Below are positions 5,721 to 39,986 of a stretch of 64,000 bases of DNA, piece after piece. Every line of letters starts with the position of its first letter. The first letter of the stretch is position 1. The notes beneath the pieces are model-generated. The model was not told the DNA's origin. It saw only the letters and a program-made list of their open reading frames with translations, and searched no databases. Location: contig JADHVL010000006.1 of NCBI GenBank assembly GCA_016784025.1, positions 86,910 to 150,909 of the forward strand. Reading direction: 5' to 3'. The translations under genes and the position numbers were made by a program. Origin of the DNA: Fidelibacterota bacterium (GTDB lineage Bacteria; Fidelibacterota; UBA8477; JABMPR01).

Positions 5721-6626
5721 TTGAAAAACATGAATCCAAAAATATTCCTGCCTGTTCTGCTGTTCCTCCTGTGCTTTGGAATATCCTATGTATTCATCAT
5801 GGATATTGAAACTCCCATACCTGAACCAACACCCAAAGCTGATAAGAAGACAGAGACTATCTATTTTGGTGTGATTTCCAGGTATTCTCCCAGATCCATA
5901 GTGAGTGGCTACCAACCATTAATGGAATACCTCACAAACAATACACCATACAATTTCAAGTTGAAACTTAGCCGTAATTATTTAGAGACCGTTGACCAAT
6001 TGGCAGGTGGTCGTATTGATTTCGCATCACTTGGGAATTATACCTACATCCATGCCCATAAGAATCATGGGGTTCGGTGTATTGCAATGCCCATTAATGA
6101 CGATGGTAATATTGAAAATTATGATGATATCATCGTTCCCCAAAATTCAGATATTGAAAACCTCGTAGAACTAGCAGGTAAATCCTTTGCCTTCGCCTCA
6201 AAGCAATCATTCAGTTCCTGGATGGGTATCTGGATGTTGAAACAAGCCGGCGTAGAATTATCAGATTTATCACACTACGAAAATTTGAGTTATCATGATC
6301 TGGTGGCTGAAAAAGTCCTCAGAGGCGATTTCGATGCGGGGATGGTTAAATCTGTTGTTGCTCAATCCTATGAAGAATCGGGAATTCGGATCCTGGCCAG
6401 GTCACCAGCCATTCCCAGTGTCCCTCTCGTTGCAGCTTCCCATGTTGATACCTCTCGTATTCGCATTGTTCAAGCAGCCCTCCTAAAACTGAGCTCACTA
6501 ATAGAGAATGGTGATATATCTACTTCTGGATGGGATACTGAAGTAGCAAATGGATTTGTGGCAGGTCATGATAGCCTCTTTACTTTTCCCAGGCAGCTCT
6601 TAGATGATATAGAACAAGAGATGTGA
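5721..6626 (+). CDS. PhnD-like (phosphate/phosphonate-type) periplasmic substrate-binding protein, probable co-sensor
   Basis: N-terminal anchor or signal. Motifs IYFGVISRYSP, YQPLMEYL, GRIDFASLGNYTY, GKSFAFASKQSFSSW and GDFDAGMV follow the PhnD-family layout. No ABC permease or ATPase is adjacent. The stop overlaps the kinase start. Confidence 0.65.
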   Translation: MKNMNPKIFLPVLLFLLCFGISYVFIMDIETPIPEPTPKADKKTETIYFGVISRYSPRSIVSGYQPLMEYLTNNTPYNFKLKLSRNYLETVDQLAGGRIDFASLGNYTYIHAHKNHGVRCIAMPINDDGNIENYDDIIVPQNSDIENLVELAGKSFAFASKQSFSSWMGIWMLKQAGVELSDLSHYENLSYHDLVAEKVLRGDFDAGMVKSVVAQSYEESGIRILARSPAIPSVPLVAASHVDTSRIRIVQAALLKLSSLIENGDISTSGWDTEVANGFVAGHDSLFTFPRQLLDDIEQEM

Positions 6627-8083
6627 TGAAACCAATTAACAGCATCCATGATAAACTGGTGATCAGGATTGGGTTAAGCCTCTCCATTGTCCTCCTCATA
6701 CTTTTCTTTGCCATCATGACTTCGCAAAAAGAAGCTATTATTGCCAAGCATCGAACTGTTGCTACAACCATGGTTCAAACTGCCATCATTCCCATTAATG
6801 ATGCTCTCTATCTCGCTGGCTCAGAAAACGATGATTTTTTACAATCATTTCTCAAAAATTTTGTACTGGAATATCAGGATGAGATCAAGTTTGCGCTCAT
6901 CCTCGGTGAAGGAGGGCGGGTAATTGCCCACTCTGATATTTCACAGATAAATGAGATATACAGTGACGTTTACAGTAATTCTGCCCTTGAGTCTCTGGAT
7001 CCCCAATTTCACATCTACAGGGACAACCAATTCGGCGGGGTAATGGAAATATCTGCTCCCCTTGGTTTAATCACACTTTCACACGGTGCAGTGAGATTGG
7101 GTCTCGATTCTAAGCCCCTGGAAAGTGAACTCCGCAGCACCATGCTCTTTATCATTGGTATGATTCTACTCACCCTGGTGCTTGTAATATTTATTGTCTT
7201 AAGAATTAGTCGAAGTGTTACACGGGGATTGAGACATACTGCTGAAGCCATTGATGCCATTGATTTTCAAACTTCAGAGCCACTGGAGCTCCTTGAGACT
7301 GACGATGAAATTGGGTTATTAAATGACCGCTTTAAACGTCTTCAAGAGCGTCTTATCAATACCCGATCCAGCATGGAAATAACCAATAAAAATCTGGTGC
7401 AAACCGAAAAACTGGCTGCTATGGGGCGTATGGCTGCTGGTGTGGCGCATGAGATCAATAATCCACTTATGGGTTTAAAGAATTGTCTTCATTTATTACA
7501 CATCGATCCGGAGAATCAGGCCGATCATATTCGTCTTCTAAAAGATGGATTTGATCGTATTGAGATTATTGTGTCCCGTTTGCTGGAAGGTGCCCGAAAA
7601 AAAACCGGCACCATTAAAGACTATGATTTTAACAGAAGTGTGAGAGATGTTCTGAATCTGGTAGGGCATCGACTTTCCAAAGAGAAGATTATCACTCAGG
7701 TACACTTGAACGACACAATCCCACCTGTCTATAATAATAAATCGGGATTTGAAGAGGCTCTTTTAAATATCTGCATGAATGCACTTGATGCCATTGGCAG
7801 CGTGGGAACCATCCACCTGGAAACAGAAATCAGGGGCAGCAATGTCGCCGTTATTGTTGGTGATTCTGGTCCGGGAATTGCCAGCGAAGAAAGGTCAAGA
7901 ATGTTTGAACCCTTTGTCACCTCAAAAGAAGTAGGGAAAGGGACCGGGTTGGGATTGTATGTATCACGGGAGATTATTGGGGCTATGGGTGGAGAAATAA
8001 GCTACTCAACCAGTGATCTCGGGGGAGCAGAATTTACCATTGAACTCCCAATCCGAATTGAGATCGATGAGGAAATGGAATAA
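6623..8083 (+). CDS. Sensor histidine kinase (2 TM, extracytoplasmic domain, HAMP, HisKA, HATPase_c)
   Basis: H-box GVAHEINNPL. N-box ICMNALDA. G-boxes GDSGPGI and GTGLGL. The start is GTG 6623 or ATG 6626, overlapping the upstream stop. Confidence 0.9.
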   Translation: MMKPINSIHDKLVIRIGLSLSIVLLILFFAIMTSQKEAIIAKHRTVATTMVQTAIIPINDALYLAGSENDDFLQSFLKNFVLEYQDEIKFALILGEGGRVIAHSDISQINEIYSDVYSNSALESLDPQFHIYRDNQFGGVMEISAPLGLITLSHGAVRLGLDSKPLESELRSTMLFIIGMILLTLVLVIFIVLRISRSVTRGLRHTAEAIDAIDFQTSEPLELLETDDEIGLLNDRFKRLQERLINTRSSMEITNKNLVQTEKLAAMGRMAAGVAHEINNPLMGLKNCLHLLHIDPENQADHIRLLKDGFDRIEIIVSRLLEGARKKTGTIKDYDFNRSVRDVLNLVGHRLSKEKIITQVHLNDTIPPVYNNKSGFEEALLNICMNALDAIGSVGTIHLETEIRGSNVAVIVGDSGPGIASEERSRMFEPFVTSKEVGKGTGLGLYVSREIIGAMGGEISYSTSDLGGAEFTIELPIRIEIDEEME

Positions 8084-8084
8084 G

Positions 8085-9437
8085 ATGTTGAAAATATTAC
8101 TGGTTGAAGATGAACGTATAAATCGAATTACCCTACAGAAGTTACTGGAGCACGCTGGTTATGCCGTAACCGCAGTAGAGGACGGGACTGCGGGTCTGGA
8201 GGCCGTTCAAACTGAAAGCTGGGACGTAGTCCTCACTGACTATCGACTCCCCGGTGCTGACGGTCTGGAGATCCTTGAGGAAGTCAAACGAATTTCACCT
8301 GATACTCAAGTATTAATCATGACTGCGTTTGCCACAGTTGAAAATGCGCTTTCCGCCTTGAAGAAGGGTGCCTTTGACTATCTCACAAAACCTTTTGACC
8401 CTGATGAATTATTCCATCATTTGGCCAGGATATCTGCAATAAGAGCTTTGAACTCTGAGAACAAAGTATTGCGAGCTTCATTGGCCGAGTTGAAAGTCTC
8501 TCCAGATCTTATTGGGCAATCTGAGATTATGCGTGATCTTTTCGAAAAGGTGAAGATCGTAGCGGAGAGCGAACATACCGTCCTGATCCAGGGAGCCAGC
8601 GGAACCGGCAAAGAAAAAATTGCCAATGCAGTCCAGTCATTGAGTCAACGACGGGAAAACCCTTATGTGAAAATTAATTGCTCAGCCCTCAGTGAAACTC
8701 TTTTTGAGACTGAAATGTTTGGTCATGAGAAAGGAGCATTTACTGGAGCTGTGAAACGATCCATTGGCCGCTTCGAGAGAGCCAAAGGTGGTACTATTCT
8801 CCTGGATGATATTGATGATTTAAGCATGCGGCTGCAAACCAAACTTCTGCGAGTGATTCAAGAAGGCGAAATTGAGAGAGTAGGGGGAACTGAAGTAATT
8901 CCAGTAGATGTCAGAATTATTGCAGCGACCAAAATTGATTTGAAATCCCTTGTTGAAAAAAAGTCATTTCGCGAGGACCTGTATTATCGCCTGAATGTGA
9001 TTAGACTTATTGTCCCAGCGCTGAACGAACGGAAATCGGACATACCCTTATTGGCTCACTTCTTTTTGTCCAAACTGAATGCAGATAAACAGCTCTCACC
9101 GGAGCTGATCAAGTATCTCATGGATCTGGATTGGCCAGGTAATGTGCGAGAGTTGGAACACTTGATCATGCAAATGTCAGTATTTTGCCGAAAAACTGTG
9201 ATAGACTTGAATGATATCCCTGATTCTTATCTTCCCATTCAGCGAAATATGGATACAAAGAATGATGGTGAGTCGTCCTTGACCACACAGGTGAACGAGT
9301 TTGAGATGCAGATAATTAATGACAGCATGGACAAATACTCGGGGAATCAGCAAAAGGTTGCTGATTCACTGGGAATTCCCAGGACCACCTTGAGGAGTAA
9401 ACTGTTAAAACATGGTCTTATCGATCTAAAAGATTAA
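8085..9437 (+). CDS. Sigma-54-dependent response regulator (NtrC-type bEBP: REC + AAA+ + HTH)
   Basis: REC domain MLKILLVEDE...VLTDYRLPG. Walker A GASGTGKE. The sigma-54 contact motif GAFTGA is present, with a C-terminal HTH. ATG 8085 sits 1 nt after the kinase stop, so the ORF-track start 8013 lies inside the kinase gene and is rejected. Confidence 0.9.
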   Translation: MLKILLVEDERINRITLQKLLEHAGYAVTAVEDGTAGLEAVQTESWDVVLTDYRLPGADGLEILEEVKRISPDTQVLIMTAFATVENALSALKKGAFDYLTKPFDPDELFHHLARISAIRALNSENKVLRASLAELKVSPDLIGQSEIMRDLFEKVKIVAESEHTVLIQGASGTGKEKIANAVQSLSQRRENPYVKINCSALSETLFETEMFGHEKGAFTGAVKRSIGRFERAKGGTILLDDIDDLSMRLQTKLLRVIQEGEIERVGGTEVIPVDVRIIAATKIDLKSLVEKKSFREDLYYRLNVIRLIVPALNERKSDIPLLAHFFLSKLNADKQLSPELIKYLMDLDWPGNVRELEHLIMQMSVFCRKTVIDLNDIPDSYLPIQRNMDTKNDGESSLTTQVNEFEMQIINDSMDKYSGNQQKVADSLGIPRTTLRSKLLKHGLIDLKD

Positions 9438-9528
9438 CCATAATTCTTGCTGCCTGGAGACGATAAGCTTCGTTTCACATTCTAACAAAAATCTTATACC
9501 TAAGATGTAGATTTCCCCTGTTAGCTAG

Positions 9529-9592
9529 TGGGAATAGACGATATCTCGTCTATAGTGACGATATCTGGTCGGTGATATAGTGAATATTCCCA
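9529..9592. promoter_or_regulatory. Dyad-symmetric candidate activator-binding region (UAS)
   Basis: TGGGAATA (9529-9536) faces TATTCCCA (9585-9592). Inside lie the palindrome TAGACGA-TATC-TCGTCTA (9535-9552) and a repeated GACGATATCT (9538-9547, 9557-9566). Confidence 0.3.
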
Positions 9593-9658
9593 GATAGTCG
9601 TGACAACTCGAAGCTGTAAGTATAATATAAACAGTAGTGAAGATTCATAGACCGTTTA

Positions 9659-9674
9659 TGGCATAGCATTTGGA
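9659..9674 (+). promoter_or_regulatory. Possible sigma-54 (-24/-12) promoter
   Basis: TGGCAT-N5-TTGGA versus consensus TGGCAC-N5-TTGCW, 55 nt upstream of ATG 9729. The -12 element reads GG rather than GC, so it is weak. Confidence 0.25.
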
Positions 9675-9728
9675 ATACATAAAGGCTGTGAATTAAAGAT
9701 AGAACCATCCAAATAAAGGACAACGAAC

Positions 9729-10328
9729 ATGGCAAAGATCGAATTAGGCAAGATTATCCCTAGATGGGAATGGCGAACTTTTGGTGATGAGTTTGGTGTT
9801 GCTGAAGAGAATATCAAAGCCCACGAATGCACCCGCGAAATTGAGAGTAGCGAAGTGTATATCCTTTCCAAGAAAAGCGGTGAGAATATCAAGATCAGAG
9901 ATACCCTCATGGATATCAAGGTATTGAGAAATGCTAAGAATGATCTGGAACAATGGTTCCCAATCATGAAAGCTACTTTTCCCATCGGAGCAGAGGAAGC
10001 TGCAGAAGTATTTAAGGCCGCTGGCATTGAGGTTGGGCTAAATGAAGCTGATACCTGGGAATATGATGCCTTCATCTCAAAAATGGTTGATACTAATTCT
10101 GATCTCAAGGCTGTTGGTGTTTTCAAAAAACGCTATGGCTATATGATTGAGGGAGCAACAGTTGAAATCGCAGACCTCACCATTGATGGCAAAGAAATCA
10201 GAACCACAGCAGTTGAAGATGCTGACCCCGAATTGGTAACGAGGCTTGTTGCAAAACTTGGTCTCAATGGTTATGAAAATATCAGCTACATCAAAGCCAT
10301 GCGTCGCATGGTGGGATTTGAGGATTAA
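9729..10328 (+). CDS. CYTH-like (triphosphate tunnel fold) protein with a degenerate ExExK motif
   Basis: The layout parallels CYTH. It has an N-terminal WEWRTF where ExExK is expected, then ENIKIRD, then KKRYGYMIEGATVEIADLTIDGKEIRTTAVE (compare the K.R..Y....V.LD.V..LG.F.EIE pattern). Confidence 0.45.
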   Translation: MAKIELGKIIPRWEWRTFGDEFGVAEENIKAHECTREIESSEVYILSKKSGENIKIRDTLMDIKVLRNAKNDLEQWFPIMKATFPIGAEEAAEVFKAAGIEVGLNEADTWEYDAFISKMVDTNSDLKAVGVFKKRYGYMIEGATVEIADLTIDGKEIRTTAVEDADPELVTRLVAKLGLNGYENISYIKAMRRMVGFED

Positions 10329-10331
10329 ACC

Positions 10332-10796
10332 ATGGGTCAAGAAATAGAACGTAAGTTTCTGGTCACAGCGACTACCTATCGTGATTTAGCAAAAGGCACG
10401 CATTACAAACAGGGCTACCTGAATAGTCAGAAAGAACGTGTTGTACGCGTTCGGACCATTGACGCCACAGGGTATATGACAGTCAAGGGAATCACAAAAG
10501 GGGCAACCCGCCTCGAATACGAATATGAAATCCCAGCTAAAGATGCTGATGAATTGTTAGATATGCTCTGTGAACAACCCATTATTGATAAACATCGTTA
10601 TAAGGTGAAAATGGGTGAATTCGTGTGGGAAATCGATGAATTCCATGGAGAAAATGAAGGTCTCACAGTTGCAGAGGTGGAATTGCTTTCTGAAGATCAG
10701 GAATTTCCAAAACCTGATTGGATAGGAGAGGAAGTCACTGGAGATCCCCGCTATTACAATTCGAATTTAATCGCCAATCCTTTCAAGAAATGGTAA
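10332..10796 (+). CDS. CYTH domain protein (triphosphate tunnel metalloenzyme, inorganic triphosphatase/class IV cyclase family)
   Basis: Canonical N-terminal EIERKFLV (ExExK). RVRT, TVKG, LEYEYEI, KHRYKV and VAEVEL beta-strand motifs follow. 154 aa. Confidence 0.8.
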   Translation: MGQEIERKFLVTATTYRDLAKGTHYKQGYLNSQKERVVRVRTIDATGYMTVKGITKGATRLEYEYEIPAKDADELLDMLCEQPIIDKHRYKVKMGEFVWEIDEFHGENEGLTVAEVELLSEDQEFPKPDWIGEEVTGDPRYYNSNLIANPFKKW

Positions 10797-10813
10797 TAGA
10801 TCCCTTTTAGCCT

Positions 10814-12364
10814 ATGAAACAAATGTTGAATGACACGAAGGTGAAAATCACCCTCCGAGTAATTGGTTTAATATTACTCGTAATGGCTTTTCTACTATTG
10901 GTGCCTTCAGCCAAGGCAGCCTTCCCTGAAAAGCCAATCAAAATTGTGGTATACACAGGTCCCGGCGGACTTATTGATATCAGTGCCAGGAAGTTTGCAG
11001 GAATCGCCGCAAAATATGTAGATGTAAATTTTGTTGTTGAGAATAAACCTGGGGCCGGTGGCATAGTTGCACTCAAAAAGGTTATTCAGGCACCTGCAGA
11101 CGGTTACAATCTTTATGCCTGCACAAAATCCAATATTGCCAAGTTCGTTCAGGTAGGGGGCGAGGGATATGTCGATGCTCTACACTGGACGGCTATGCTC
11201 ATGGCTGACCCAGAATGCGTCATTACCAATCGGAAATTGGCGATCTATGAATGGAACGATATTGTTTTAGACGCCCTGGCCACCCCAGGAGAACAAACCT
11301 GGGTAGGTCCTGCCGCTGGGGGACTGGATCATGTTACTGCATTGAAGATATGGGACAAATATGGGATGGATGCAAAGTGGATTCCATTTAAAAGCGGTGG
11401 AAAAGCACTTGCTGCACTCCTGGGAGAGCAGGGGGTAGCCTATGTTGGAAATCCCCGCGATGCCCTTGGTAATCCCGACTTGTTTATTGCTGCCGTATCT
11501 GCACCACAACGCCTAGAAGCCTTCCCAGATGTGCCAACCTTTACTGAACTCGGTATGCCTGACCTGGAGAATGAATTCATGTGGAGAGGTTTTGCTCTGA
11601 AGAAGGGAACTCCCCCCGACGTAATCCAATGGTATGATGATCTTTTCAAAAAAGTATCTGCTGATTCGGAATGGAGAGATTTTTGGGCTAAAGGTGGGAT
11701 AGATGTTGCCTATGTGGCTGAACCTGAATTCTCTAAGCTTGTGGCAGAAGATGCAAAGGTCTTTGAATATTATTTGAAGAAGAGTGACATTCTTCCCGGA
11801 GAGGCTGTTGGATTTATGGCGAAAATGGCAAGTGGCTCAGCCTTTAAAATACTTGCGCTAATACTCGTATGTATCTGGTTATCAGGCTCATACATGGTTC
11901 ACAAATCACAATATTCGGCCATATTAGGGAGAGTGTTGGTTATTGGCTTCTTTTTAATCGTGAGCATTCTTTTTCTTATACAATCAATGAATTTTCCAAG
12001 TAGCTCAGCTGTGGGACCGGCCGCTGTCCCGCGTCTTTGGATCTTTATGTTAGTCCCTCTTAATATCTTACTTCTGGTCAAGACATTTCGCAAAAACGAA
12101 GCAGTTGCGGAGACTGGTCCTCGAGTAGATATCGTGCTCAGCTTTATTGGATTTCTAGTGATTTACCTGTTTGCCATGCAATTATTTGGTTATTTCCTCA
12201 GCACATTTGCATTCATTATCGTAGGTCTTTACTATCTTGGATATCGTAAATGGCGCAACACCTTTATCATAGCTGGTGCCTGGATATTGTTCTCCTATAT
12301 CATCTTTTATAAAACCCTATACGTTCCGCTTCCTTTGGGAATGCTATTCGAAAACCTCTTCTAA
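10814..12364 (+). CDS. Tripartite tricarboxylate transporter TctC (Bug-family binding protein) fused to a TctB-like 4-TM domain
   Basis: The N-terminal ~330 aa carry FPEKPIKIVVYTGPGGLIDISAR and VVENKPGAGGIVA...APADGYNL (Bug/TctC signature). The C-terminal ~170 aa have four hydrophobic helices of TctB size and sit directly before TctA. Confidence 0.7.
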   Translation: MKQMLNDTKVKITLRVIGLILLVMAFLLLVPSAKAAFPEKPIKIVVYTGPGGLIDISARKFAGIAAKYVDVNFVVENKPGAGGIVALKKVIQAPADGYNLYACTKSNIAKFVQVGGEGYVDALHWTAMLMADPECVITNRKLAIYEWNDIVLDALATPGEQTWVGPAAGGLDHVTALKIWDKYGMDAKWIPFKSGGKALAALLGEQGVAYVGNPRDALGNPDLFIAAVSAPQRLEAFPDVPTFTELGMPDLENEFMWRGFALKKGTPPDVIQWYDDLFKKVSADSEWRDFWAKGGIDVAYVAEPEFSKLVAEDAKVFEYYLKKSDILPGEAVGFMAKMASGSAFKILALILVCIWLSGSYMVHKSQYSAILGRVLVIGFFLIVSILFLIQSMNFPSSSAVGPAAVPRLWIFMLVPLNILLLVKTFRKNEAVAETGPRVDIVLSFIGFLVIYLFAMQLFGYFLSTFAFIIVGLYYLGYRKWRNTFIIAGAWILFSYIIFYKTLYVPLPLGMLFENLF

Positions 12365-12375
12365 GGATCTGAGCA

Positions 12376-13857
12376 GTGGAATTATTAAGCAATTTAGGAG
12401 ACGGTTTAGCATTTGTTCTGGGTGTAGTCCCCATCCTGACTATTACACTTGGTGTAGCTATGGGAATTGTGGCTGGCGCCACACCCGGCTTATCACCATC
12501 AATGGGTGTAGCTTTGCTAGTACCCTTTACCTATGCCATGTCTCCAACACTGGCATTGATTCTTCTCGTGGCTATTTACATTGCCGCTAACTATGGTGGC
12601 TCCATTACGGCTGTCACCATTAATGCTCCTGGCACACCTTCATCAGTCGTTACAGCCTTCGATGGCTACCCACTAACAAAGAAGGGCAAGCCGGGGATGG
12701 CACTCGGTGTTTCATTGGTTTCCTCTACAGTTGGAGGTATCATTGGAACGCTAATTTTAATCTTCTTTTCAGGACCCTTAGCAAGGTTTGCGTTGAAATT
12801 TCATCCCGCAGAATACTTTGCTCTGGCTATTTTTGGTCTTACCACGGTCGCATCCCTTGGTGGAAAAAATTGGATTAAAGCCTTTATAGCGGCAATGTTT
12901 GGCCTCCTGTTGAATACAATTGGCATCGACCCAATTTCTGGCGTGAGTCGTTTTACTTTTGGCATTTCATTTTTATACGATGGTTTTGCATTGATCCCGG
13001 CCTTGATCGGTCTCTTTGCCCTCAGCGAGATATTCAAGCAACTGGAGGGTGGTGATTTCTCCAGTCAGCAAGTTGAGTCAGGTAAACAAGAATGGCCAAC
13101 GGCTGGTGCATACTGGAAGTTGAAGAATACTATCATGCGATCCTCTCTCATGGGAACCATCATCGGTATATTCCCCGGGGCTGGAGCCACCATTGCAGCC
13201 TTCATTTCCTATGATGTAGCCAAACGAGTCAGTAAACATCCAGAAGAATTTGGACATGGCAGCCTGGAAGGCGTGGCTGCCGCTGAAGGTGCCAACAGTA
13301 GCTCCGTTGGTGGTGCACTCATTCCATTACTCACACTGGGTATACCGGGCAGCGCCTCCACGGCAGTACTTATTGGTGCCCTGATGATACATGACCTTAC
13401 ACCTGGTCCACAGCTATTCATTTCCAATCCTGATATTATATACGGACTTCTCGCCAGTCTCTTGCTGGCAAATATTATCCTGCTGGTTCTGGGATTCTTT
13501 GGAAGCCGCTTATGGATCAAAGTAACTACCATCCCAAAAACTGTCTTATTCCCACTGATATTTGCTGTATCAATCATCGGTAGTTTTGCTGTGAGGAATT
13601 CATTTTTTGATGTAGCGGCCTGTCTGGCCTTTGGAGTATTTGGATGGATTTTACGTAGATACAACTATCCAGTTGCCCCCATTATCCTTGGTATGGTTCT
13701 GGGTAATATTGCCGAAACAAATTTCATACGCGCCATCATGATGGGGGGGTGGACAGTCTTTTTTACCCGCCCACTAAGTTTGGGAATGCTCGTGGTCGCT
13801 GCAGCAAGTTTTGCTGTACCCTTAATTCAAGCTCGAAAACAGAAAACCAGCTCTTAG
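12376..13857 (+). CDS. tctA: Tripartite tricarboxylate transporter large permease TctA
   Basis: 493 aa and highly hydrophobic. GTG start with AAGGA upstream. Motifs GATPGLSPSMGVALL, NYGGSITA, PGTPSS and IFPGAGATIAAF are typical of TctA. Confidence 0.8.
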   Translation: MELLSNLGDGLAFVLGVVPILTITLGVAMGIVAGATPGLSPSMGVALLVPFTYAMSPTLALILLVAIYIAANYGGSITAVTINAPGTPSSVVTAFDGYPLTKKGKPGMALGVSLVSSTVGGIIGTLILIFFSGPLARFALKFHPAEYFALAIFGLTTVASLGGKNWIKAFIAAMFGLLLNTIGIDPISGVSRFTFGISFLYDGFALIPALIGLFALSEIFKQLEGGDFSSQQVESGKQEWPTAGAYWKLKNTIMRSSLMGTIIGIFPGAGATIAAFISYDVAKRVSKHPEEFGHGSLEGVAAAEGANSSSVGGALIPLLTLGIPGSASTAVLIGALMIHDLTPGPQLFISNPDIIYGLLASLLLANIILLVLGFFGSRLWIKVTTIPKTVLFPLIFAVSIIGSFAVRNSFFDVAACLAFGVFGWILRRYNYPVAPIILGMVLGNIAETNFIRAIMMGGWTVFFTRPLSLGMLVVAAASFAVPLIQARKQKTSS

Positions 13858-13879
13858 AGCTGAACGGAGGCTTTGCTAC

Positions 13880-15673: not shown

Positions 15674-15682
15674 GCTGTCTTT

Positions 15683-17449
15683 ATGAGGTATCTTGTACCC
15701 ATCTTGCTGTTCTCAGCCAGACCATTGCTTGCCAATGATCATGTGACAACAGATATAGAATGGACCTTTCTGGTCATGGGGTTGTTTGGTGGTCTATCTC
15801 TCTTCCTATATGGGATGGACAAGATGAGTGATGGAATGAAGAAAGCTGCCGGGGATAGGATGAGAAACATCCTCGCTGCCTTAACCAGACATCGAATAGT
15901 GGGACTGACCCTTGGTGCCTTTGTAACCATGGTCATTCAAAGCTCAAGCGCCACAACAGTAATGCTCGTCAGTTTTGTACAGGCTGGACTAATGGGTTTT
16001 GCTCAATCACTCGCAGTGATTATGGGTGCCAATATTGGAACCACAATTACGGCTCAACTCGTGGCTTTTAAACTCACAGACTATGCTCTTGCAATGATCA
16101 CAATAGGCTTTCTCATGAATCTATTTTCAAAGCAAGAATCAATAAAGCATTTGGGACAGGCGTTGCTGGGTTTTGGAATCCTGTTCTTCGGAATGAAACT
16201 CATGTCAGACTCCATGAAACCACTCCGGACTTTTGAACCATTCATCGGACTAATGGAAGGTCTAGAAAATCCAATCTATGGACTTTTAATTGGTGCCCTC
16301 TTTACCGGTCTTATTCAAAGCAGTAGTGCCTTTACAGGTATTGTTATCGTTCTTGCCCAGCAGGGTCTGCTTTCTCTTGATGCGGGTATTCCTTTAATTA
16401 TGGGTGCCAATATCGGGACCTGTATCACGGCAGGTCTGGCGAGTATTGGAACGATTCGTGGGGCTAAACGAGTAGCCATTGCCCATGTCCTGTTCAATCT
16501 TGGAGGGGTATTCATTTTTATCTGGTTTATTCCTCAATTGGCTGATCTGGTCAGGTGGATGTCTCCAGTTGCTCATGCTACTGGGGTAGAAAAACTGGCT
16601 ATGGAAACCCCTCGCCAGATAGCAAATGCACACACCATATTCAATATTACCGTCGGGCTTGTTTTTCTACCTTTCACCTCCTTCCTGGCAACCCTCATAT
16701 TAAAGATTCTGCCTGATGAGGAGATCGAAAAGGGAATTGTGCCTGTGACCTGGCACCTGGATAATTCCCAGGTATCACACCCCGCTGTTGCCATCGAATT
16801 GGCCCGAACTGAAATGCTCCGCATGATCAAGATTTTGGGACGTATGCTCGATGTATTCCTGCGTCCTTTCCTGGGAGATGAAAAAGAACCTGATCGGTAC
16901 TATCCTCAACTATCCCTCATGGAAGGGATTGATATGCGCGAGGACAAGATCAATTTCCTTGAGCAAAACGTATCTAAATACCTTTTTAGCATCAGTCGGC
17001 AGGAATTGAGTGATATTCAAGCAGCAAAAGTGTTCAGCATGATGTCTATGGTCAAAGACATGGAAAGTATTGGTGATATCATCCATGGCCGAATCAAACT
17101 GCTGGTAGAAAAGAAACGTAAGTTAAAAGAACCATTCTCCGAACAAGGGCAGAATGAATTGACTGATTTCCACGTAAGAGTTATGAAGCAAATCTCCCGG
17201 TTGAGAAGTGCTTTTTCCAAAGAAAAATCCAAAAAAATTGAGAAAGTGATCCGAAAAGATCAAAAATATAGAGACCTTGAATCAGAGTACCGGATGAGGC
17301 ATCTCGAGCGAGTGAAGAGTGAGAGGGCAGATTCTGTTGCAACCCATGACCTTCACATGGAGCTCATGGATCTGCTCAAGCAAATCAACGTTTATACTGG
17401 CGAGATCGCCAAAAACATTGTTGTCATTGAAGAAACTGAAACGGAGTAA
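15683..17449 (+). CDS. Na/Pi-cotransporter family protein with C-terminal PhoU-like domain (paralog 2)
   Basis: Same architecture as paralog 1. Long identical runs are shared (GAFVTMVIQSSSATTVMLVSFVQAGLM, LSLDAGIPLIMGANIGTC). Confidence 0.85.
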   Translation: MRYLVPILLFSARPLLANDHVTTDIEWTFLVMGLFGGLSLFLYGMDKMSDGMKKAAGDRMRNILAALTRHRIVGLTLGAFVTMVIQSSSATTVMLVSFVQAGLMGFAQSLAVIMGANIGTTITAQLVAFKLTDYALAMITIGFLMNLFSKQESIKHLGQALLGFGILFFGMKLMSDSMKPLRTFEPFIGLMEGLENPIYGLLIGALFTGLIQSSSAFTGIVIVLAQQGLLSLDAGIPLIMGANIGTCITAGLASIGTIRGAKRVAIAHVLFNLGGVFIFIWFIPQLADLVRWMSPVAHATGVEKLAMETPRQIANAHTIFNITVGLVFLPFTSFLATLILKILPDEEIEKGIVPVTWHLDNSQVSHPAVAIELARTEMLRMIKILGRMLDVFLRPFLGDEKEPDRYYPQLSLMEGIDMREDKINFLEQNVSKYLFSISRQELSDIQAAKVFSMMSMVKDMESIGDIIHGRIKLLVEKKRKLKEPFSEQGQNELTDFHVRVMKQISRLRSAFSKEKSKKIEKVIRKDQKYRDLESEYRMRHLERVKSERADSVATHDLHMELMDLLKQINVYTGEIAKNIVVIEETETE

Positions 17450-17459
17450 GGAAAGCATT

Positions 17460-18398
17460 ATGAGTTTTACCGCGAGATTTATAAACATAGTACTGATCGC
17501 AACATTTCTTGCATCTTGTGCGAGTAATCAGCCCGCAATAGTAGAGGTAGCACCAGTTGAGACAGTTGAACCAGCACCTGAATATTTTCTCAATTCCAGT
17601 GAGTATAAACTCCTACTCAATGCAGAGATGTTTGGTGACTATGAGAAGGGCTTTGCTGAGTACTGGCAGTTTGTTCAGGAAGTAGCAGCTGCTGAGGGTA
17701 TACCCGTACTGATAAAAGAAGACCCTCTAAAACTTTCTCATAAACAGGTCTCCTTTTGGGATACAGAAGGTCTTGACCTCCGGAAGAACAGTTTTCTATT
17801 ACGCAGGAAATCAAAATATAAGGGGGGAGAAATAGCCCCGGGATATGAGTTTGGTCTGAAATTTCGCCAGCCTGACCCCACGACAACTCTGTCCAAGGAT
17901 CTGACAATGACAGAGGGTTATGTTCCCAAATTCGACCGCATTGAACTCGAATCTGACATTGTGTATTATTCTGCAAAGAATGGTGGCCAAGATCTCACAT
18001 ATGCTGTTTCGAACTCAGTTCAACTTGACGATATGCCCTCAAATACCTATGGCGGTTTTGTAAAAATCTATCCCGTTCTCGCCACACTTGGTATCTCTGA
18101 AGAAGCCGAGCTATCCATGGTTGCAGGCATTGCAGTCGATGAATGGATGGTCAAACCTGGTAAACTTGACTTTGGTGATGGTCTATACGGTCGTATGGAT
18201 ATGAGTGTCTGGATCGTTGAAACTGAAGCAGGGGAAATGCGAATTGCTGAATTCTCCTTCGATCATGATTTCCTCAACGACAGGCAATATGATGCTGAGG
18301 CAATGCAACGTTGTACAACTTTTATCAATAAGCTGAATGATTATAAACCAGAATGGTCAGAAGTTGGTAAGCTCAAGGCTGCCTATCTGTTTGAATAG
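17460..18398 (+). CDS. Exported lipoprotein with a CYTH-like domain (hypothetical)
   Basis: ATG 17460 gives MSFTARFINIVLIATFLASCAS (lipobox). The ORF-track start 17319 lies inside the preceding gene. VSFWDTEGLDLRKNSFLLRRK resembles the CYTH YFDTPD..L...G..LRIR strand pair. YEFGLKFR, RIELESD and IAEFSFD continue the alternating charged-strand pattern. Confidence 0.4.
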   Translation: MSFTARFINIVLIATFLASCASNQPAIVEVAPVETVEPAPEYFLNSSEYKLLLNAEMFGDYEKGFAEYWQFVQEVAAAEGIPVLIKEDPLKLSHKQVSFWDTEGLDLRKNSFLLRRKSKYKGGEIAPGYEFGLKFRQPDPTTTLSKDLTMTEGYVPKFDRIELESDIVYYSAKNGGQDLTYAVSNSVQLDDMPSNTYGGFVKIYPVLATLGISEEAELSMVAGIAVDEWMVKPGKLDFGDGLYGRMDMSVWIVETEAGEMRIAEFSFDHDFLNDRQYDAEAMQRCTTFINKLNDYKPEWSEVGKLKAAYLFE

Positions 18399-18433
18399 CC
18401 GGGTTGTGATTTAATAAACGAACTGATGAACCA

Positions 18434-19942
18434 ATGAATGCTCAAGAAATAAATTTCGATACGAATCTGAACGTTATTGCTCAGAGGGAATCCAGTCGGG
18501 GAGAGAATCTCACCAAATACATTGGTTTTCCATTGGGTATCATCTTCTTTTTGATTCTCTACCTCATGCCCACACCTGATGGCTTAACATTAGAAGCCCA
18601 GGCAGCCATAGCATCCTTTGCCCTGGCTTTAACCTGGTGGGTAACCGAACCCATCCCCACATATGCCACATCCCTGCTACTTATGGGCCTGCTAACCTTT
18701 TTTAATGGTTGGACTGAAGATAAGGTGTTGGGTGTATTCGGATTAGAGGTCATCTGGCTGAATATCCTGGCCTTTATCCTCAGCTCAACCCTGGTGAAAA
18801 GCCAATTGGCCAAACGCTTTGCCTTATGGATTGGTCTGCGTTTTGGACATAGTTCCTATACGATTCTTGGTGCGTTTATCGTTCTTCAACTTTTTCTGGC
18901 ACCTTTTATCCCTGCCACGACAGCCAGGACAGTAATGGTCCTTCCGGTAATGTTGGTGATCTCATCTATCTATGGGTCTACTTCAGGGAATGGAAATAAC
19001 TTTGGTGTAAACCTGTTTATGCAGAATCTACAGGGTATAAGTATTTTTTCATCAGGTTTTATCACAGGAAGCACCTGTAATATCGTCGCAGCTGCCTTCA
19101 TCTTTGAAATGGGCAATGAGAAGGTCTACTATTCTGATTGGATGTTCGGTATGCTGCCCATCACTATTATAGTTATGGCAATATCCTGGTGGCTGGGACC
19201 CAAATACCTGTTCCCCATCAAAAAAGAAGACCAGCAGCCCAAGGTTAAGGGTGGCTTTGAAGTGATGCGTAAAATGCTGGACGAAATGGGTGGGTTTACC
19301 CTGGCTGAAGGAAAATCAGCAGGCGTGTTCCTCTCTGTTCTCTTTCTCTGGGCCACCGATCGCTTTCATGTGGGTTGGTTTGGTTTTGAGATCAGTGCTG
19401 TTATGGCAGCCCTGCTCGGTGTTGTATTCGTCTTTTTGCCAAAAATCGGTCTGTTGAAGTGGAACGATGCAGATATTCCCTGGCATGTGATGATCTTTAG
19501 TGCTGGTGCATATTCCGGTGGACTGGCTTTATTTGATTCAGGAGCTGCACGCTGGCTAGTGGGCAGTGTTTTTGATATGGTCGGTCTGGGTGCAGATCTA
19601 AGCTTTTGGACGGTCTACATCATCATTATTGCCTTCTCAATGTATGCACATCTTTTCTTTACCAGTAAAACAATGCGATCCATTGTGATGATACCCATTA
19701 TTATCGCCATTGCACAGCAGTTCGGTTTTGATCCAGTATCTTTGGCACTGCCAGCGGCATTTACATTGACCTGGGTAATCACTTTACCAACCAATGCCAA
19801 GCCTAACCTGATCCTGTATAGCGCAGGACAATTCTCCATTTCTGACAACTTGAAATATGGACTCACCGTTTCAACCATAGGTGTAGTTGTCATGGTGATA
19901 GCAGGTTTTACCTGGTTCCGCTTTTTGGGGATAACGCCATGA
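18434..19942 (+). CDS. DASS/SLC13-family anion:sodium symporter
   Basis: 502 aa with about 12+ TM segments. TWWVTEPIP near the N-terminus and a second hairpin region (ITLPTNAKPNLI) are typical of DASS/ArsB-NhaD superfamily permeases. Confidence 0.7.
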   Translation: MNAQEINFDTNLNVIAQRESSRGENLTKYIGFPLGIIFFLILYLMPTPDGLTLEAQAAIASFALALTWWVTEPIPTYATSLLLMGLLTFFNGWTEDKVLGVFGLEVIWLNILAFILSSTLVKSQLAKRFALWIGLRFGHSSYTILGAFIVLQLFLAPFIPATTARTVMVLPVMLVISSIYGSTSGNGNNFGVNLFMQNLQGISIFSSGFITGSTCNIVAAAFIFEMGNEKVYYSDWMFGMLPITIIVMAISWWLGPKYLFPIKKEDQQPKVKGGFEVMRKMLDEMGGFTLAEGKSAGVFLSVLFLWATDRFHVGWFGFEISAVMAALLGVVFVFLPKIGLLKWNDADIPWHVMIFSAGAYSGGLALFDSGAARWLVGSVFDMVGLGADLSFWTVYIIIIAFSMYAHLFFTSKTMRSIVMIPIIIAIAQQFGFDPVSLALPAAFTLTWVITLPTNAKPNLILYSAGQFSISDNLKYGLTVSTIGVVVMVIAGFTWFRFLGITP

Positions 19943-20703
19943 AGTATATAAGTATGGTCAAAACACTATTCGGGCTCTCAATATTTTCCAGTTTACTGCT
20001 CGCTCAGCAGATTGATGTATTTGAGCAAACTGTATCTATTTCTGAAGACGGGTCTGCGCAGTTTACATACCAGGTGAATCTCTCAGTTATTGATAGTGTC
20101 AGGTCAGTTCAGATTCCTGCCGGATATGAGAATATGGAGATTACATCAGTCTCATTGGATGATGTTGATATCACGCACCAAACTGCAATTACCATTGACA
20201 GGTCATCGCCAATCTTTGTTATAAATTTTTCCAAGCCAATCTCGGGTGAGCATACCATCGGTATCATCACTGAGATCCACGAATTTCTGGATTGGAGTGC
20301 AGCTGGTCCTGAAGAGTTTAAGACCTACAACTGGGAGGTTCACTATACCAATACATTGCCTGCCTCCATTGGTCAATGTGATTTGACAGTAATTTTACCT
20401 CAGGGATGGAATTTCCATCGGATTACTGGCAGTGATCCAGAATTCAAAAAGAAACAACCCAAACCACCTTATATATTTGCCAAGGTCGGAGACAGAGCCA
20501 GCGTTTCAATATCCAGATCACCAATGGAATACATGCAAAGCGTAGGTATCGAATTTGCATTTAAAAACGAACAGAAACCCAATGTACTTATCTGGGTAGG
20601 GATTCTGTTAGGTATACTCTATCTCTATAACTTTAGACATCTTGTTCTCCGAAGAGATGCTGAATCAACAATTGATACAATTAATGACAAGGAGTCAAAA
20701 TGA
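19939..20703 (+). CDS. Hypothetical exported protein with a C-terminal TM anchor
   Basis: Signal-like N-terminus (LFGLSIFSSLLLAQQ). C-terminal helix VLIWVGILLGILYLY. Start and stop overlap the neighbouring genes (ATGA). Confidence 0.55.
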   Translation: MKYISMVKTLFGLSIFSSLLLAQQIDVFEQTVSISEDGSAQFTYQVNLSVIDSVRSVQIPAGYENMEITSVSLDDVDITHQTAITIDRSSPIFVINFSKPISGEHTIGIITEIHEFLDWSAAGPEEFKTYNWEVHYTNTLPASIGQCDLTVILPQGWNFHRITGSDPEFKKKQPKPPYIFAKVGDRASVSISRSPMEYMQSVGIEFAFKNEQKPNVLIWVGILLGILYLYNFRHLVLRRDAESTIDTINDKESK

Positions 20704-21875
20704 ATATCTTAAAAGTGCTCTTGAGTGGCCTAATACTATTGCCACTCTTCACGTTTGGACAGGGCATTACTGTGAGTACAGGAAGTGGACTAGATCTTGA
20801 ACTCAGTGGTGAAGTCGAATTAGAGTTTATTGATGTAGAGGGAGCTGGTGGATTTGCTAACCAGGATTTAACCTATCAGAAGGTCAGAAACCGCAGTCCC
20901 CACATGCGTATTGATATGGCTGTGCTGGGAGCTCGTGTCAATTACAGCGAAAATCTATCTTATAACATTGAGTTTCGCTTTGATGATGAGAGCGCCTATG
21001 TTGATAAACAATATGCTCGTTTGAACGTCCCCGGCATTAACACCCAATTTGAGATGGGAAAGAATCGCCCCTTTGTGTCCAGGAAAAGACAATCAGAAGG
21101 TTATCCACTTGTGGGAACTGCATTCTGGAAGGGTCGTGAGGCCCACATTAATGGAACTACTGAAATTATGCTGGGTGAGAAAGGAAAGCTCACTGGTGGG
21201 TTGTCATTCGCCATGAAACGGCCTCTGGGTACCGATGATGCTGCTGAAGACAAATCATTCAAAATGATGGTTTATGATGATTATGAGCCTAAAAATGGTC
21301 AAACCTTTGAATATGGTGTCAAAGCCGGAATAGATATAGCCGGCATTTCATTGCTAGGCTGGTACTTCATGGGTGAACTCATTGATGATTGGGACTGGAA
21401 AGCCAGCCTCAAACAATCACTTGCTCCTTATTCAAATATGGGTGATGAAACTGATGTAACCCATTATTGGATGGGTGGCAGAGCGGCATACAAAATTGCC
21501 GGATTGAATTTAGTTGGTGAATATATCCGAGCTCAGGACGGATTATTGACACGTGAGGGTGCCTATGGTGAAGCATCCTATTCAATGAAGGCACCCTCAT
21601 TTTTACATGCCAAGGGTCTTACGTTTCTGGGACGGCAAGGTTTTCTAAATTTGGTTTCAAAAGAGAACAGTGCCGGAGAAGAATTGACATGGGCTTATCT
21701 TAGTGAAGCCATGTCCTGGGATAGACAAATGACCACACTTTCCGCCATGTTGGAAATAAATGACAATTTGACTCTCAAATTCGAACATTACATTCTTGGC
21801 GAAACAACTGGGTCTGATATCGAGTCTAGTGTGGATGATGATCAGACCCTATTACAGATAAACTTCAGATTTTAA
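20700..21875 (+). CDS. Outer-membrane beta-barrel porin-like protein
   Basis: Signal peptide present. Alternating amphipathic strands throughout. The C-terminal LLQINFRF ends in aromatic F, as in OMP sorting signals. Confidence 0.6.
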   Translation: MNILKVLLSGLILLPLFTFGQGITVSTGSGLDLELSGEVELEFIDVEGAGGFANQDLTYQKVRNRSPHMRIDMAVLGARVNYSENLSYNIEFRFDDESAYVDKQYARLNVPGINTQFEMGKNRPFVSRKRQSEGYPLVGTAFWKGREAHINGTTEIMLGEKGKLTGGLSFAMKRPLGTDDAAEDKSFKMMVYDDYEPKNGQTFEYGVKAGIDIAGISLLGWYFMGELIDDWDWKASLKQSLAPYSNMGDETDVTHYWMGGRAAYKIAGLNLVGEYIRAQDGLLTREGAYGEASYSMKAPSFLHAKGLTFLGRQGFLNLVSKENSAGEELTWAYLSEAMSWDRQMTTLSAMLEINDNLTLKFEHYILGETTGSDIESSVDDDQTLLQINFRF

Positions 21876-21926
21876 TAGTAACCAACAAGAAGTGTTAACA
21901 AAAAGTCCTTATAAGGAGGAACAAAC

Positions 21927-23168: not shown

Positions 23169-23195
23169 TAATCGCTTAAACTGTCTTATGTTTGA

Positions 23196-23230
23196 AAAAC
23201 CAGCCTGGTTCTGCCAGGCTGGTTTGTTTA
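23196..23230 (+). terminator. Rho-independent terminator
   Basis: AAACCAGCCTGG (23197-23208), loop TTCTG, CCAGGCTGGTTT (23214-23225), then a T-rich tail. Confidence 0.75.
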
Positions 23231-23296
23231 ACGTACATCAATATTTTTCGAAATAATAATTGTCAGATGTCATCAATGTCTCAAGAGGGTATAAGC

Positions 23297-24532: not shown

Positions 24533-24549
24533 AAAATAGGCTACCACTT

Positions 24550-39916: not shown

Positions 39917-39986
39917 TCCATCGATATTAGAAAGCACAGGAAGATTTGATCAAAACATACACAATCACGATAGCGGGTTGGCTCGC

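Follow-up and report, generated by a model that had tools for sequence, protein, structure and literature searches.

Introduction

Enzymes of the CYTH or triphosphate tunnel metalloenzyme (TTM) type carry the hallmark motif ExExK, which binds metal and substrate, and plant TTM1/2, which are devoid of it, are pyrophosphatases (PMC8233210). NeuTTM is a highly specific hydrolase of inorganic triphosphate (PPPi) with unknown physiological role; it is debated whether PPPi exists as a free metabolite, and specific triphosphatases (PPPases) have been proposed as possible metabolite-proofreading enzymes (PMC3440374). Here we describe a locus in a 64-kb stretch of DNA from a Fidelibacterota bacterium (contig JADHVL010000006.1, positions 86,910 to 150,909 of the forward strand; in the following the window, counted from its first nucleotide), in which a predicted triphosphatase of the NeuTTM type is encoded together with two divergent proteins of the same tunnel fold, named CYTHl1 and LipoCYTH, and with several classes of anion transporters. 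This locus and its relatives from other phyla always combine a module rich in transporters with a cytoplasmic enzyme that hydrolyses phosphoanhydride chains and with a divergent tunnel-fold partner; in most cases orthophosphate carriers and an anion porin are present as well.

Like NeuTTM, YgiF and CthTTM, the canonical enzyme of the window shares ExExK and the positions of the Tyr/Lys dyad, and according to structure models the eight-stranded tunnel fold is also found in its two partners. Unlike these characterised enzymes, for which no physiological context is known, it lies in a transporter operon; the partners have RxExR and SxExK instead of ExExK, and one of them is exported as a lipoprotein. 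To our knowledge there is no such exported lipoprotein among the characterised TTM proteins.

The control genes resemble the arsenic-sensing systems AioXSR, ArxXSR and ArrXSR, of which the regulators AioR and ArrR are sigma-54 dependent. The binding proteins ArrX, AioX and ArxX have no part in transport and signal through the XSR kinase and regulator; ArrX binds both arsenate and phosphate, and the AioX orthologues were stated to be the sole signalling members of this binding-protein family (PMC5908839). Because of this statement, the trio of the window would be a second and much wider signalling group. ArrX is the nearest solved relative of the window sensor, and the residues of its oxyanion pocket appear to be conserved. 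However, the similarity is distant (6x6b, E 1.8e-12), the target genes encode anion transporters and tunnel-fold proteins and not molybdoenzymes of arsenic respiration or oxidation, and the ligand is more likely a phosphate species.

The Pho regulon (PhoBR, PstSCAB-PhoU, OprO/OprP, PiT) also combines an outer-membrane anion porin with orthophosphate (Pi) carriers and PhoU-type domains, and Porin_O_P and PhoU_div-PHO4 genes are present in loci related to ours (sister loci). OprO of Pseudomonas prefers pyro- and polyphosphate. However, family scans of the window proteins detected no PhoB, PhoR or Pst, control is exerted by an XSR-type sensor and sigma-54, and the Pho regulons described so far include neither carriers of the tripartite tricarboxylate transporter (TTT) and DASS families nor tunnel-fold proteins. 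With TctDE-TctCBA the window shares homologues of TctA, TctB and TctC and the two-component control of an uptake operon. Here, unlike there, TctC and TctB form a single protein, a sigma-54 dependent bacterial enhancer-binding protein (bEBP) with a separate binding-protein sensor takes the place of the OmpR-type TctD, and the neighbourhood is phosphate-related, the TctC/TctA clade travelling with the CYTH pair across phyla.

In the PgtABC-PgtP system of Salmonella, a phospho-anion carrier is induced by its external substrate, through an accessory protein that modulates the kinase and a response regulator (PMC9306846); carriers of the same OPA family occur in sister loci. The window itself, however, has no OPA carrier, its PgtA and PgtB scores are far below the cut-offs, and Pgt is not associated with hydrolases. 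Modules of the ppk-ppx and CHAD-TTM type pair or fuse a polyphosphate hydrolase with an accessory domain for polyphosphate, as do the CYTHl1-Ppx fusions reported below. Neither ppk nor CHAD is found here, though; the accessory domain has a divergent tunnel fold of its own, and the modules are linked to transport genes.

Thus every component family is already known, the regulatory trio being of XSR type and the canonical enzyme NeuTTM-like. An earlier note on this DNA, made by a model from the sequence alone, had taken the whole for an unknown operon type under control of a bEBP. It had missed that the trio belongs to the known ArrXSR/AioXSR type, but for the combination it is supported, as full-text literature searches brought up no paper in which such an operon is reported. 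Neither CYTH together with TctA, nor CYTH together with a phosphate-selective porin or Ppx, nor CYTH together with Marinimicrobia led to a description of the locus. No description was found either of its modular conservation across phyla, the alternation of CYTH and Ppx, the two tunnel-fold families that lack ExExK and of which one is exported, or an XSR-type sensor outside arsenic metabolism.

Results

Three proteins of the triphosphate tunnel fold

Among the three tunnel-fold proteins (Table 1) only the one encoded at 10332-10796 passes the PF01928 cut-off and carries the complete ExExK motif; CYTHl1 and LipoCYTH both lack the first glutamate. It matches the NeuTTM structures 2fbl and 3typ at E 1e-16. 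In the alignment E4-I-E6-R-K8, Tyr29, Lys52 and Lys87 coincide with ExExK, Tyr28, Lys52 and Lys85 of NeuTTM, and the stretches EIERK, QGY(29)L, T(V/L)K(52) and (D/E)K(87)xRY are kept, with the Tyr28/Lys52 dyad and the Lys8 and Lys85 positions conserved. The protein is predicted to be an inorganic triphosphatase of the NeuTTM type. To its orthologues in other phyla it is 62-73% identical.

For CYTHl1 and LipoCYTH no match was obtained with Pfam (E<=0.01), NCBIfam or PDB sequence profiles. When they were compared by hhalign with a single CYTH protein and with a profile of 18 CYTH sequences, the probability stayed below 1%, and no relationship between the two families was detected by the same method. 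The earlier note had addressed both as CYTH-like, which could therefore not be verified by Pfam, where only the canonical protein scores, but was borne out at the level of the fold. The AlphaFold2 model of CYTHl1 (pLDDT 94.6) has eight strands, and that of LipoCYTH reached a pLDDT of 90.1. In Foldseek searches of the PDB, CYTHl1 matched 5a64 best (E 4e-7, further matches to 1e-4, probability 1.0). Its top matches comprise ThTPase, AtTTM3, YgiF and SaTTM; the first 32 matches in succession are CYTH-type TTM enzymes, followed at ranks 33-35 by the RNA triphosphatase Pct1. The best match of LipoCYTH was 5a68 (E 7e-8, further matches to 1e-4, probability 1.0, TM-score at most 0.62 when normalised to the target), and AtTTM3, HpAC1 and YgiF are among the others. 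For both proteins the top 30 or so matches are all TTM enzymes, with TM-scores of about 0.5-0.6, and the two lists together cover thiamine triphosphatase, AtTTM3, YgiF, SaTTM, class IV adenylyl cyclases and Cet1/Pct1. As far as predicted structures can tell, the CYTH/TTM fold with its eight-stranded tunnel is confirmed for both.

Invariant charged residues are distributed along the predicted strands in both families; in the homologue alignment of CYTHl1 they lie on every strand, and R12-W-E14-W-R16 is invariant. In LipoCYTH the motifs SEYK, IELESD and EFSFDH are invariant, S46-S-E48-Y-K50 taking the position of ExExK, and even distant homologues retain the signal peptide and SxExK. Because RxExR or SxExK replaces ExExK, the two are regarded as fold relatives and not as canonical CYTH members. 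The CYTHl1 family is large, with 1946 cluster representatives at E<=1e-3, and its gene is always the first of the operon in the Marinimicrobia-type layout. Several members are N-terminal fusions to Ppx-GppA, which plausibly explains why CYTHl1 family members are named "exopolyphosphatase" in one source.

Conservation of the locus and alternation of CYTH and Ppx

CYTHl1 was used as anchor for a metagenome scan, which yielded 80 loci (43-97% identity), the open reading frames (ORFs) of which were labelled with reference proteins and profiles. The following descriptive counts refer to the 42 loci with at least 5 kb of downstream sequence. A CYTH or a Ppx gene stands beside CYTHl1 in every one of them, CYTH in 21 and Ppx in the other 21, and the two never occur together. 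A TTT or DASS transporter was found in 40 loci (DASS in 17), and PHO4 (with PhoU_div) or a Na/Pi-cotransporter (NaPi) in 31. Porin genes were present in 25 loci, 24 of them Porin_O_P, the bEBP in 17, the PhnD-like protein together with the kinase in 14 and an exported tunnel-fold protein in 10. No neighbourhood examined contained ppk. The Ppx proteins have about 300 amino acids and no signal peptide; since their sequence begins directly at the ASKHA motif they are considered cytoplasmic. The strict alternation and the CYTHl1-Ppx fusions indicate that the two hydrolases of P-O-P chains are interchangeable partners.

A search of a genome collection with the LipoCYTH family gave 20 loci, against which all window proteins were compared by tblastn. 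The shared order is CYTHl1, CYTH, TctCB, TctA, one to three NaPi genes, LipoCYTH, the pair of DASS and a 254-aa protein (in some loci only), porin, and the choice-of-anchor I, NHL and PKD/SdiA-regulated propellers. Marinimicrobia keep it even where identity has fallen to 31-50%, and it is also found in a bin of KSB1. In other lineages the genes are combined differently. Aminicenantes have a HisKA_3 kinase and a GerE regulator, followed by CYTHl1-Porin_O_P-CYTH-DASS-protein of about 248 aa-PhoU_div-PHO4, and an unclassified bacterium has CYTHl1-CYTH-DASS-247-aa protein-PhoU_div-PHO4-Porin_O_P-LTD-SdiA-regulated propeller. In Cloacimonadota the order is HTH-CYTHl1-Ppx-PhoU_div-PHO4-TctCB, in Magnetospira sp. 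QH-2 CYTHl1-CYTH adjoins TctABC, and in Desulfovibrio sp. Huiquan2017 a LysR gene precedes CYTH-CYTHl1-DASS-PhoU_div-PHO4. A plasmid of Citrobacter freundii FDAARGOS_73 (NZ_CP026058.1, 225384-229669) carries LysR, CYTH (64% identical), CYTHl1 and an SLC13 permease. The identities across phyla are unusually high, with 62-73% for CYTH, 58% for DASS, 61% for TctA and 49-55% for TctC. The conserved gene order expected by the earlier note was thus found in Marinimicrobia, and at least six further lineages have the genes as interchangeable modules. Its three transporter classes are indeed combined in the window, but across the loci they are swappable modules and not a fixed set.

The Citrobacter plasmid is mobilizable, and its locus also encodes a 486-aa protein without Pfam match; about 2 kb beyond the segment a truncated TTT permease adjoins IS26. 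At megablast sensitivity the CYTH-CYTHl1-SLC13 segment was not detected in any of 5,426 complete genomes of E. coli.

Some sister loci of Marinimicrobia and KSB1 differ between LipoCYTH and the porin gene. In L009 (10863-12239) and L010 (4926-6266) the DASS pair is replaced there by a major facilitator superfamily (MFS) carrier of the OPA family, similar to GlpT, UhpC and PgtP. At the same position L014, L017, L018 and L020 have a gap of comparable length. In L010 MFS and porin are separated by a DUF2490 gene, and in L009 such a gene is found downstream of the propellers. Two loci with a first gene 91-94% identical to that of the window (L030 and L032) contain PhoU_div-PHO4, Porin_O_P and an SdiA-regulated propeller, the replacements occupying the place of the second NaPi-PhoU and of the 391-aa porin. 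As the cargo differs already between such close relatives, the exchange of modules must be recent.

The regulatory trio and the control region

The three genes upstream of the gap encode a PhnD-family protein, a histidine kinase and a sigma-54 response regulator. No ABC transporter genes were found near the locus in a Pfam scan of the window proteins, so that the binding protein is without ABC partner, as had been supposed before. An ABC-less PhnD-family protein adjoining such a kinase and regulator is the arrangement of the XSR sensors, and by its sequence the product of 5721-6626 is the 'X' component of a three-component system of this type. In the alignment with ArrX, the pocket positions S-x-S, His, Tyr and Asp appear conserved. 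As no aio, arx, arr or ars genes are present in the window or in related loci, the trio, judged by sequence, works like an XSR system without being a member of the arsenic-sensing group. The bEBP has its GAFTGA motif at residue 241, in agreement with the earlier note, and probably starts at Met25 (about 8085), directly past the stop codon of the kinase. Together with the operon, the trio is also present in L016 and in 14 of the census loci.

In the gap between the bEBP gene and CYTHl1 two palindromes of the form GACGA-N4-TCGTC lie 20 bp apart (centre to centre) and about 110 bp upstream of a sigma-54-type promoter element. With up to one mismatch this motif occurs in only these two places in 64 kb. 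Among the metagenome loci a palindrome was found upstream of the first gene in 14 of 21 with a bEBP versus 5 of 48 without, the background being 0.02 per kb; in most of the five, the sensor genes lie at a contig edge. The palindromes are probably the upstream activator site of the bEBP. The promoter element is found at equal distance in L001, L003, L004, L007 and L011 and as variants in L009 and L016, and a sigma-54 motif is present in 11 of 21 metagenome loci with a visible bEBP versus 4 of 49 without. Promoter and palindromes hold their position in the sister loci although the flanking sequence has diverged. Together, the window has a putative sigma-54 promoter with proper spacing and TTGG at -12, a candidate activator site and a bEBP with GAFTGA. 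A second sigma-54-like string at 10022-10036 was rejected, as it lies inside the first gene and within chance expectation.

Other lineages use other regulators for these genes, namely GerE-type, LysR and ArsR-like HTH proteins. The cargo module is therefore older than its regulator in the window.

Layout and extent of the locus

ORFs were found at all positions for which the earlier note had given genes, and Pfam and NCBIfam returned the families it had named for the Phosphonate-bd protein, the kinase, the bEBP, the canonical CYTH protein, TctC-TctB, TctA, the two Na/Pi-PhoU proteins and DASS. The binding-protein and kinase genes overlap by 4 nt. The bEBP gene ends at 9437 and the following ATG is at 9729, so that 291 bp separate the two, and the ten genes up to 21875 follow each other with spacings of 3, 17, 11, 22, 9, 10, 35, -4 and -4 nt, which reproduces the gap and the limit of 35 nt reported before. 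The locus does not, however, end at 21875 as had been proposed, since the conserved block includes three further genes for lipoprotein beta-propellers (21927-25542). The genes behind them (a PF04463 protein, a thioredoxin and an RNase HII fusion) have matches only in close relatives (at least 84% identity; tblastn, 20 loci). The first convincing terminator on the + strand is at 26578, with no terminator-like site on this strand before it, and scans for terminators and sigma-70 promoters inside the locus gave nothing above shuffled expectation.

The earlier note had also mentioned that ten genes share one strand. This is correct, but uninformative because the window consists almost entirely of + strand genes, which are ordinary housekeeping genes. 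It is the tight spacing together with the cross-phylum conservation that exceeds chance.

Table 1. Genes and control elements of the locus, with positions in the window.
Position	Strand	Feature	Evidence
5721..6626	+	PhnD-family binding protein, periplasmic or membrane-anchored	Pfam Phosphonate-bd 8e-50; hydrophobic N-terminus
6623..8083	+	Membrane sensor histidine kinase ('S')	HAMP, HisKA, HATPase_c; weak sCache_3_2 match between two hydrophobic segments
8013..9437	+	NtrC-type sigma-54 enhancer-binding response regulator ('R')	Response_reg, Sigma54_activat 4e-67, AAA_lid_14, HTH_8
9536..9571		Candidate upstream activator site, palindromes AGACGATATCTCGTCT (9536-9551) and TGACGATATCTGGTCG (9556-9571)	GACGA-N4-TCGTC
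9659..9673	+	Sigma-54-type promoter TGGCAT-N5-TTGG	-24 GG, -12 TTGG; about 70 nt before ATG 9729
9729..10328	+	CYTHl1, cytoplasmic tunnel-fold protein, 199 aa, RxExR for ExExK	AlphaFold2 and Foldseek
10332..10796	+	Canonical cytoplasmic CYTH protein, NeuTTM type	Pfam CYTH 1.6e-16, 61 bits (PF01928 cut-off 23.2); EIERK
10814..12364	+	TctC binding domain fused to TctB	TctC 1e-25, 90.9 bits (residues 58-315); TctB 1e-15, 58.5 bits (376-507)
12376..13857	+	TctA large permease subunit	Pfam TctA 1e-158, 529 bits
13880..15673	+	Na/Pi-cotransporter permease with C-terminal PhoU, paralogue 1	Na_Pi_cotrans 6e-70; Na_Pi_symport 245 bits (NCBIfam)
15683..17449	+	Na/Pi-cotransporter permease with C-terminal PhoU, paralogue 2	Na_Pi_cotrans 1.6e-68; PhoU
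17460..18398	+	LipoCYTH, exported tunnel-fold lipoprotein, 312 aa, SxExK for ExExK	Lipobox FLASC; AlphaFold2 and Foldseek
18434..19942	+	DASS/SLC13-family anion:Na+ symporter	Na_sulph_symp 8e-65; NCBIfam dass 217 bits
19939..20703	+	Exported protein with C-terminal membrane anchor, 254 aa	Signal peptide, C-terminal hydrophobic helix; no Pfam match
20700..21875	+	Probable outer-membrane beta-barrel porin, 391 aa	Signal peptide; C-terminal ...NFRF; no Pfam match
21927..23168	+	Lipoprotein, choice-of-anchor I (MSP130-like) beta-propeller	choice_anch_I 1.5e-9; NCBIfam 3e-24; lipobox FWGC
23192..24532	+	Lipoprotein, NHL-repeat beta-propeller	Pfam NHL 1e-10; lipobox FVAC
24550..25542	+	Lipoprotein, PKD and SdiA-regulated/phytase-like beta-propeller	PKD_4 5e-15; SdiA-regulated 2.5e-16; Phytase-like 3e-7; lipobox FLSC

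Transporters, porin and propellers

All three parts of a TTT system are present, TctC and TctB in one polypeptide. Its TctC part is 49-55% identical to the TctC genes of Magnetospira, beside the CYTH pair, and of Cloacimonadota, beside CYTHl1 with Ppx replacing CYTH; TctA is 61% identical to the Magnetospira TctA that adjoins the CYTH pair. Instead of the two NaPi-PhoU paralogues, sister loci have one to three NaPi copies or PhoU_div with PHO4. The DASS protein is 58-59% identical to those beside the CYTH pair in Aminicenantes and another bacterium. The genes for DASS, the 254-aa protein and the porin are joined by ATGA stop/start overlaps (19939-19942 and 20700-20703). Through its overlap the gene for the 254-aa protein is translationally coupled to DASS. 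The 254-aa protein is homologous to the products of 246-250 aa encoded after DASS in other phyla (E 1e-6 to 3e-13), and this recurring pair of DASS and an exported, anchored protein of about 250 aa suggests an undescribed accessory subunit of the DASS carrier.

Neither Pfam nor NCBIfam has a model for the 199-aa, 312-aa, 254-aa or 391-aa proteins. The porin call of the earlier note thus finds no Pfam match, but is backed by the signal peptide, the C-terminal Phe and the position, which in sister loci is taken by Porin_O_P genes, likewise behind the transporter genes. With the Porin_O_P proteins of sister loci the 391-aa family shares a weak hhalign match (probability 50%, E 1.6e-4, 292 columns). 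The position of this gene is conserved in 15 loci.

The choice-of-anchor I gene is kept after the porin in 14 loci, and the MSP130-like family to which it belongs has a seven-bladed propeller with predicted Ca2+ sites (PMC11878542). The NHL propeller, the true start of which is probably an internal Met ahead of the lipobox, keeps its position in 11 loci. The last conserved gene of the locus is that at 24550-25542, and a homologous propeller follows the porin in 13 of the 42 census loci. Sequence comparison of all three propellers with the PDB gave only generic propeller, PKD and NHL matches, which allow no assignment of a catalytic function.

Other genes of the window

The PF04463 gene (2-thiouracil desulfurase family, 25548-25988) begins 5 nt past the last propeller gene and may be co-transcribed. 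At 26758-27711 one frame encodes a complete RNase HII domain (residues 4-187) and a YraN/UPF0102 nuclease-like domain (197-314), which normally are encoded by two separate genes. The frame 39903-42854 encodes a DinG-like helicase of 983 aa (DEAD, Helicase_C_2) with an N-terminal RNase_T-type exonuclease domain. Upstream of the locus lie genes for a protein that ends in a sorting domain for type IX secretion (Por_Secre_tail, C-terminal; 146-1015) and a PD40 beta-propeller protein (2252-3310); they are not conserved with the locus. The window has a G+C content of 43%, and its closest protein matches assign it to Candidatus Marinimicrobia / Neomarinimicrobiota. Its cumulative GC skew climbs steadily from 1 to 64000. 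Strand bias and skew are consistent with a segment of one leading-strand replichore in a strongly co-oriented genome.

Discussion

The simplest reading that uses all parts of the locus is an induced uptake of condensed phosphate. We give an even chance to the proposal that it serves the substrate-induced scavenging of tri- or short polyphosphate, probably also of pyrophosphate, and of Pi, followed by hydrolysis in the cytoplasm. The periplasmic PhnD/ArrX-like protein would detect an external phosphate-type oxyanion and signal via the histidine kinase to the NtrC-type activator, which would bind to the two palindromes and open the sigma-54 promoter of a unit of 13 genes (9729-25542). The three lipoprotein propellers and the outer-membrane porin would give access to the substrate, which LipoCYTH may bind or trim in the periplasm, acting either as a binding protein or as a periplasmic hydrolase. 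Passage through the inner membrane would be provided by the TTT, by DASS with its 254-aa partner and by the two Na/Pi-PhoU permeases, and Pi released outside would be taken up as well. In the cytoplasm the NeuTTM-type triphosphatase and CYTHl1 would turn the condensed phosphate into Pi. Triphosphatases and exopolyphosphatases both leave pyrophosphate as end product. CYTHl1, as the partner of either, may therefore be a tunnel-fold pyrophosphatase that handles this leftover, or a subunit that binds chain ends.

From this arrangement we infer the substrate, the direction of transport and the roles of each tunnel-fold protein, of the 254-aa protein and of the propellers. The link to phosphate or polyphosphate that the earlier note had suggested is strengthened by the alternation of CYTH and Ppx, the Ppx fusions, and the PiT/PhoU_div and Porin_O_P genes of sister loci, the substrate itself remaining at the level of a proposal. 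Of the outcomes that the note had named as fatal to its idea, none was observed for the fold, the gene order or an earlier description, and the short junctions and the lack of terminator-like sites on the + strand before 26578 do not speak for unrelated units. More tentatively, and at somewhat less than even chance, the locus may represent a pathway of many phyla, in which tri- or short polyphosphate would be taken up intact via TTT and/or DASS, hydrolysed by a NeuTTM-type triphosphatase or a short Ppx with the RxExR partner, and induced in the window lineage by a relative of the XSR systems. The exported tunnel-fold protein would help the uptake in some lineages.

Several points weigh against the uptake of condensed phosphate. 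We know of no TTT, DASS or NaPi transporter that has been shown to carry tri- or polyphosphate, and the known ligands of TTT systems are carboxylates. Plain uptake of Pi would account equally well for the several Pi transporters. Without the first Glu of ExExK, the two divergent tunnel-fold proteins may have no hydrolase activity, and the -12 element of the promoter, TTGG, deviates from the consensus TTGC. The replacement of the DASS pair by an OPA-family carrier in some Marinimicrobia and KSB1 loci indicates an exchange of organophosphate for Pi. Finally, the census counts are no statistics, as the loci are not phylogenetically independent.

It is possible, but unlikely, that the locus is a regulon for phosphate homeostasis or starvation, by which only Pi is imported, while upon induction CYTH or Ppx, together with CYTHl1, would draw on polyphosphate stored by the cell itself or remove toxic PPPi. 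Endogenous polyphosphate is the classical substrate of Ppx, the NaPi-PhoU, PhoU_div-PHO4 and Porin_O_P proteins all belong to families of Pi uptake, and the yeast proteins Pho87/90/91 demonstrate that DASS-family carriers can move Pi. A proofreading role, as suggested for PPPases (PMC3440374), would fit as well. However, a TTT or DASS transporter accompanies the tunnel-fold pair in nearly all census loci, ppk is absent from all neighbourhoods examined, the exported tunnel-fold protein would be left without a role, and sensors of the type found here respond to a ligand outside the cell. In the minimal versions of Citrobacter and Magnetospira the pair is accompanied by one TTT or DASS transporter and by no recognised Pi transporter. 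A transporter next to cytoplasmic hydrolases of P-anhydrides is the layout predicted by import with subsequent hydrolysis, which is therefore favoured over the mobilisation of an internal store by these minimal versions and that of Desulfovibrio, all with a regulator, two tunnel-fold proteins and one or two carriers.

Uptake of an organic phospho-anion such as phosphoglycerate, phosphoenolpyruvate, a phosphorylated carboxylate or inositol phosphate in the manner of PgtABC-PgtP, the propellers being extracellular phosphoesterases, appears improbable. Its best argument are the sister loci with a carrier similar to PgtP, UhpC and GlpT in place of the DASS pair. TTT and DASS classically carry carboxylates, one propeller matches the SdiA-regulated and Phytase-like models, and PgtC/PgtB/PgtA offer the precedent of a modulator, a kinase and a response regulator that govern a phospho-anion carrier (PMC9306846). 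However, the only conserved cytoplasmic enzymes are P-anhydride hydrolases, either NeuTTM-like CYTH or Ppx, and no phosphomonoesterase, kinase or carbon-catabolic gene is conserved in the census loci. The NCBIfam models of PgtA and PgtB gave 183 and 90 bits, compared to cut-offs of 650 and 1000, and the propellers carry no diagnostic phosphatase model.

An arsenate-responsive locus, in which the ArrX-like sensor would detect arsenate and switch on phosphate-type carriers, was considered because of the match to the arsenate-binding ArrX and because arsenate travels through Pi carriers. It was rejected as very improbable, since no arsC, acr3/arsB, arr, aio or arx genes are present in the window or in about 100 related loci; the sensor is only distantly similar to ArrX, which moreover binds phosphate too. 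Least credible is that the genes are unrelated neighbours on a strongly one-stranded chromosome, where almost all genes share the + strand, as this is already contradicted by the synteny census, with the same families recurring together, in frames that overlap or nearly abut, both among Marinimicrobia with 31-50% identity and in at least six further lineages.

By tying a specific triphosphatase to anion importers, the operon makes the physiological role of NeuTTM and YgiF directly testable, for which the Citrobacter freundii plasmid with its genes MC62_RS26845-26865, Magnetospira sp. QH-2 and a Desulfovibrio isolate are tractable carriers. It defines two families of tunnel-fold proteins without Pfam model, one of them exported, extends the XSR-type binding-protein sensors beyond arsenic and suggests that one clade each of the TTT and DASS families has substrates other than carboxylates. 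A considerable share of the phosphorus in the sea and in sediments is polyphosphate, the use of which by heterotrophs such as Marinimicrobia is poorly known. If the uptake of condensed phosphate proves true, the long-unexplained specific triphosphatases would gain a physiological role, the exported protein would be the first periplasmic member of the TTM fold known to us, and the marine and sediment phosphorus cycle would have an extra route.

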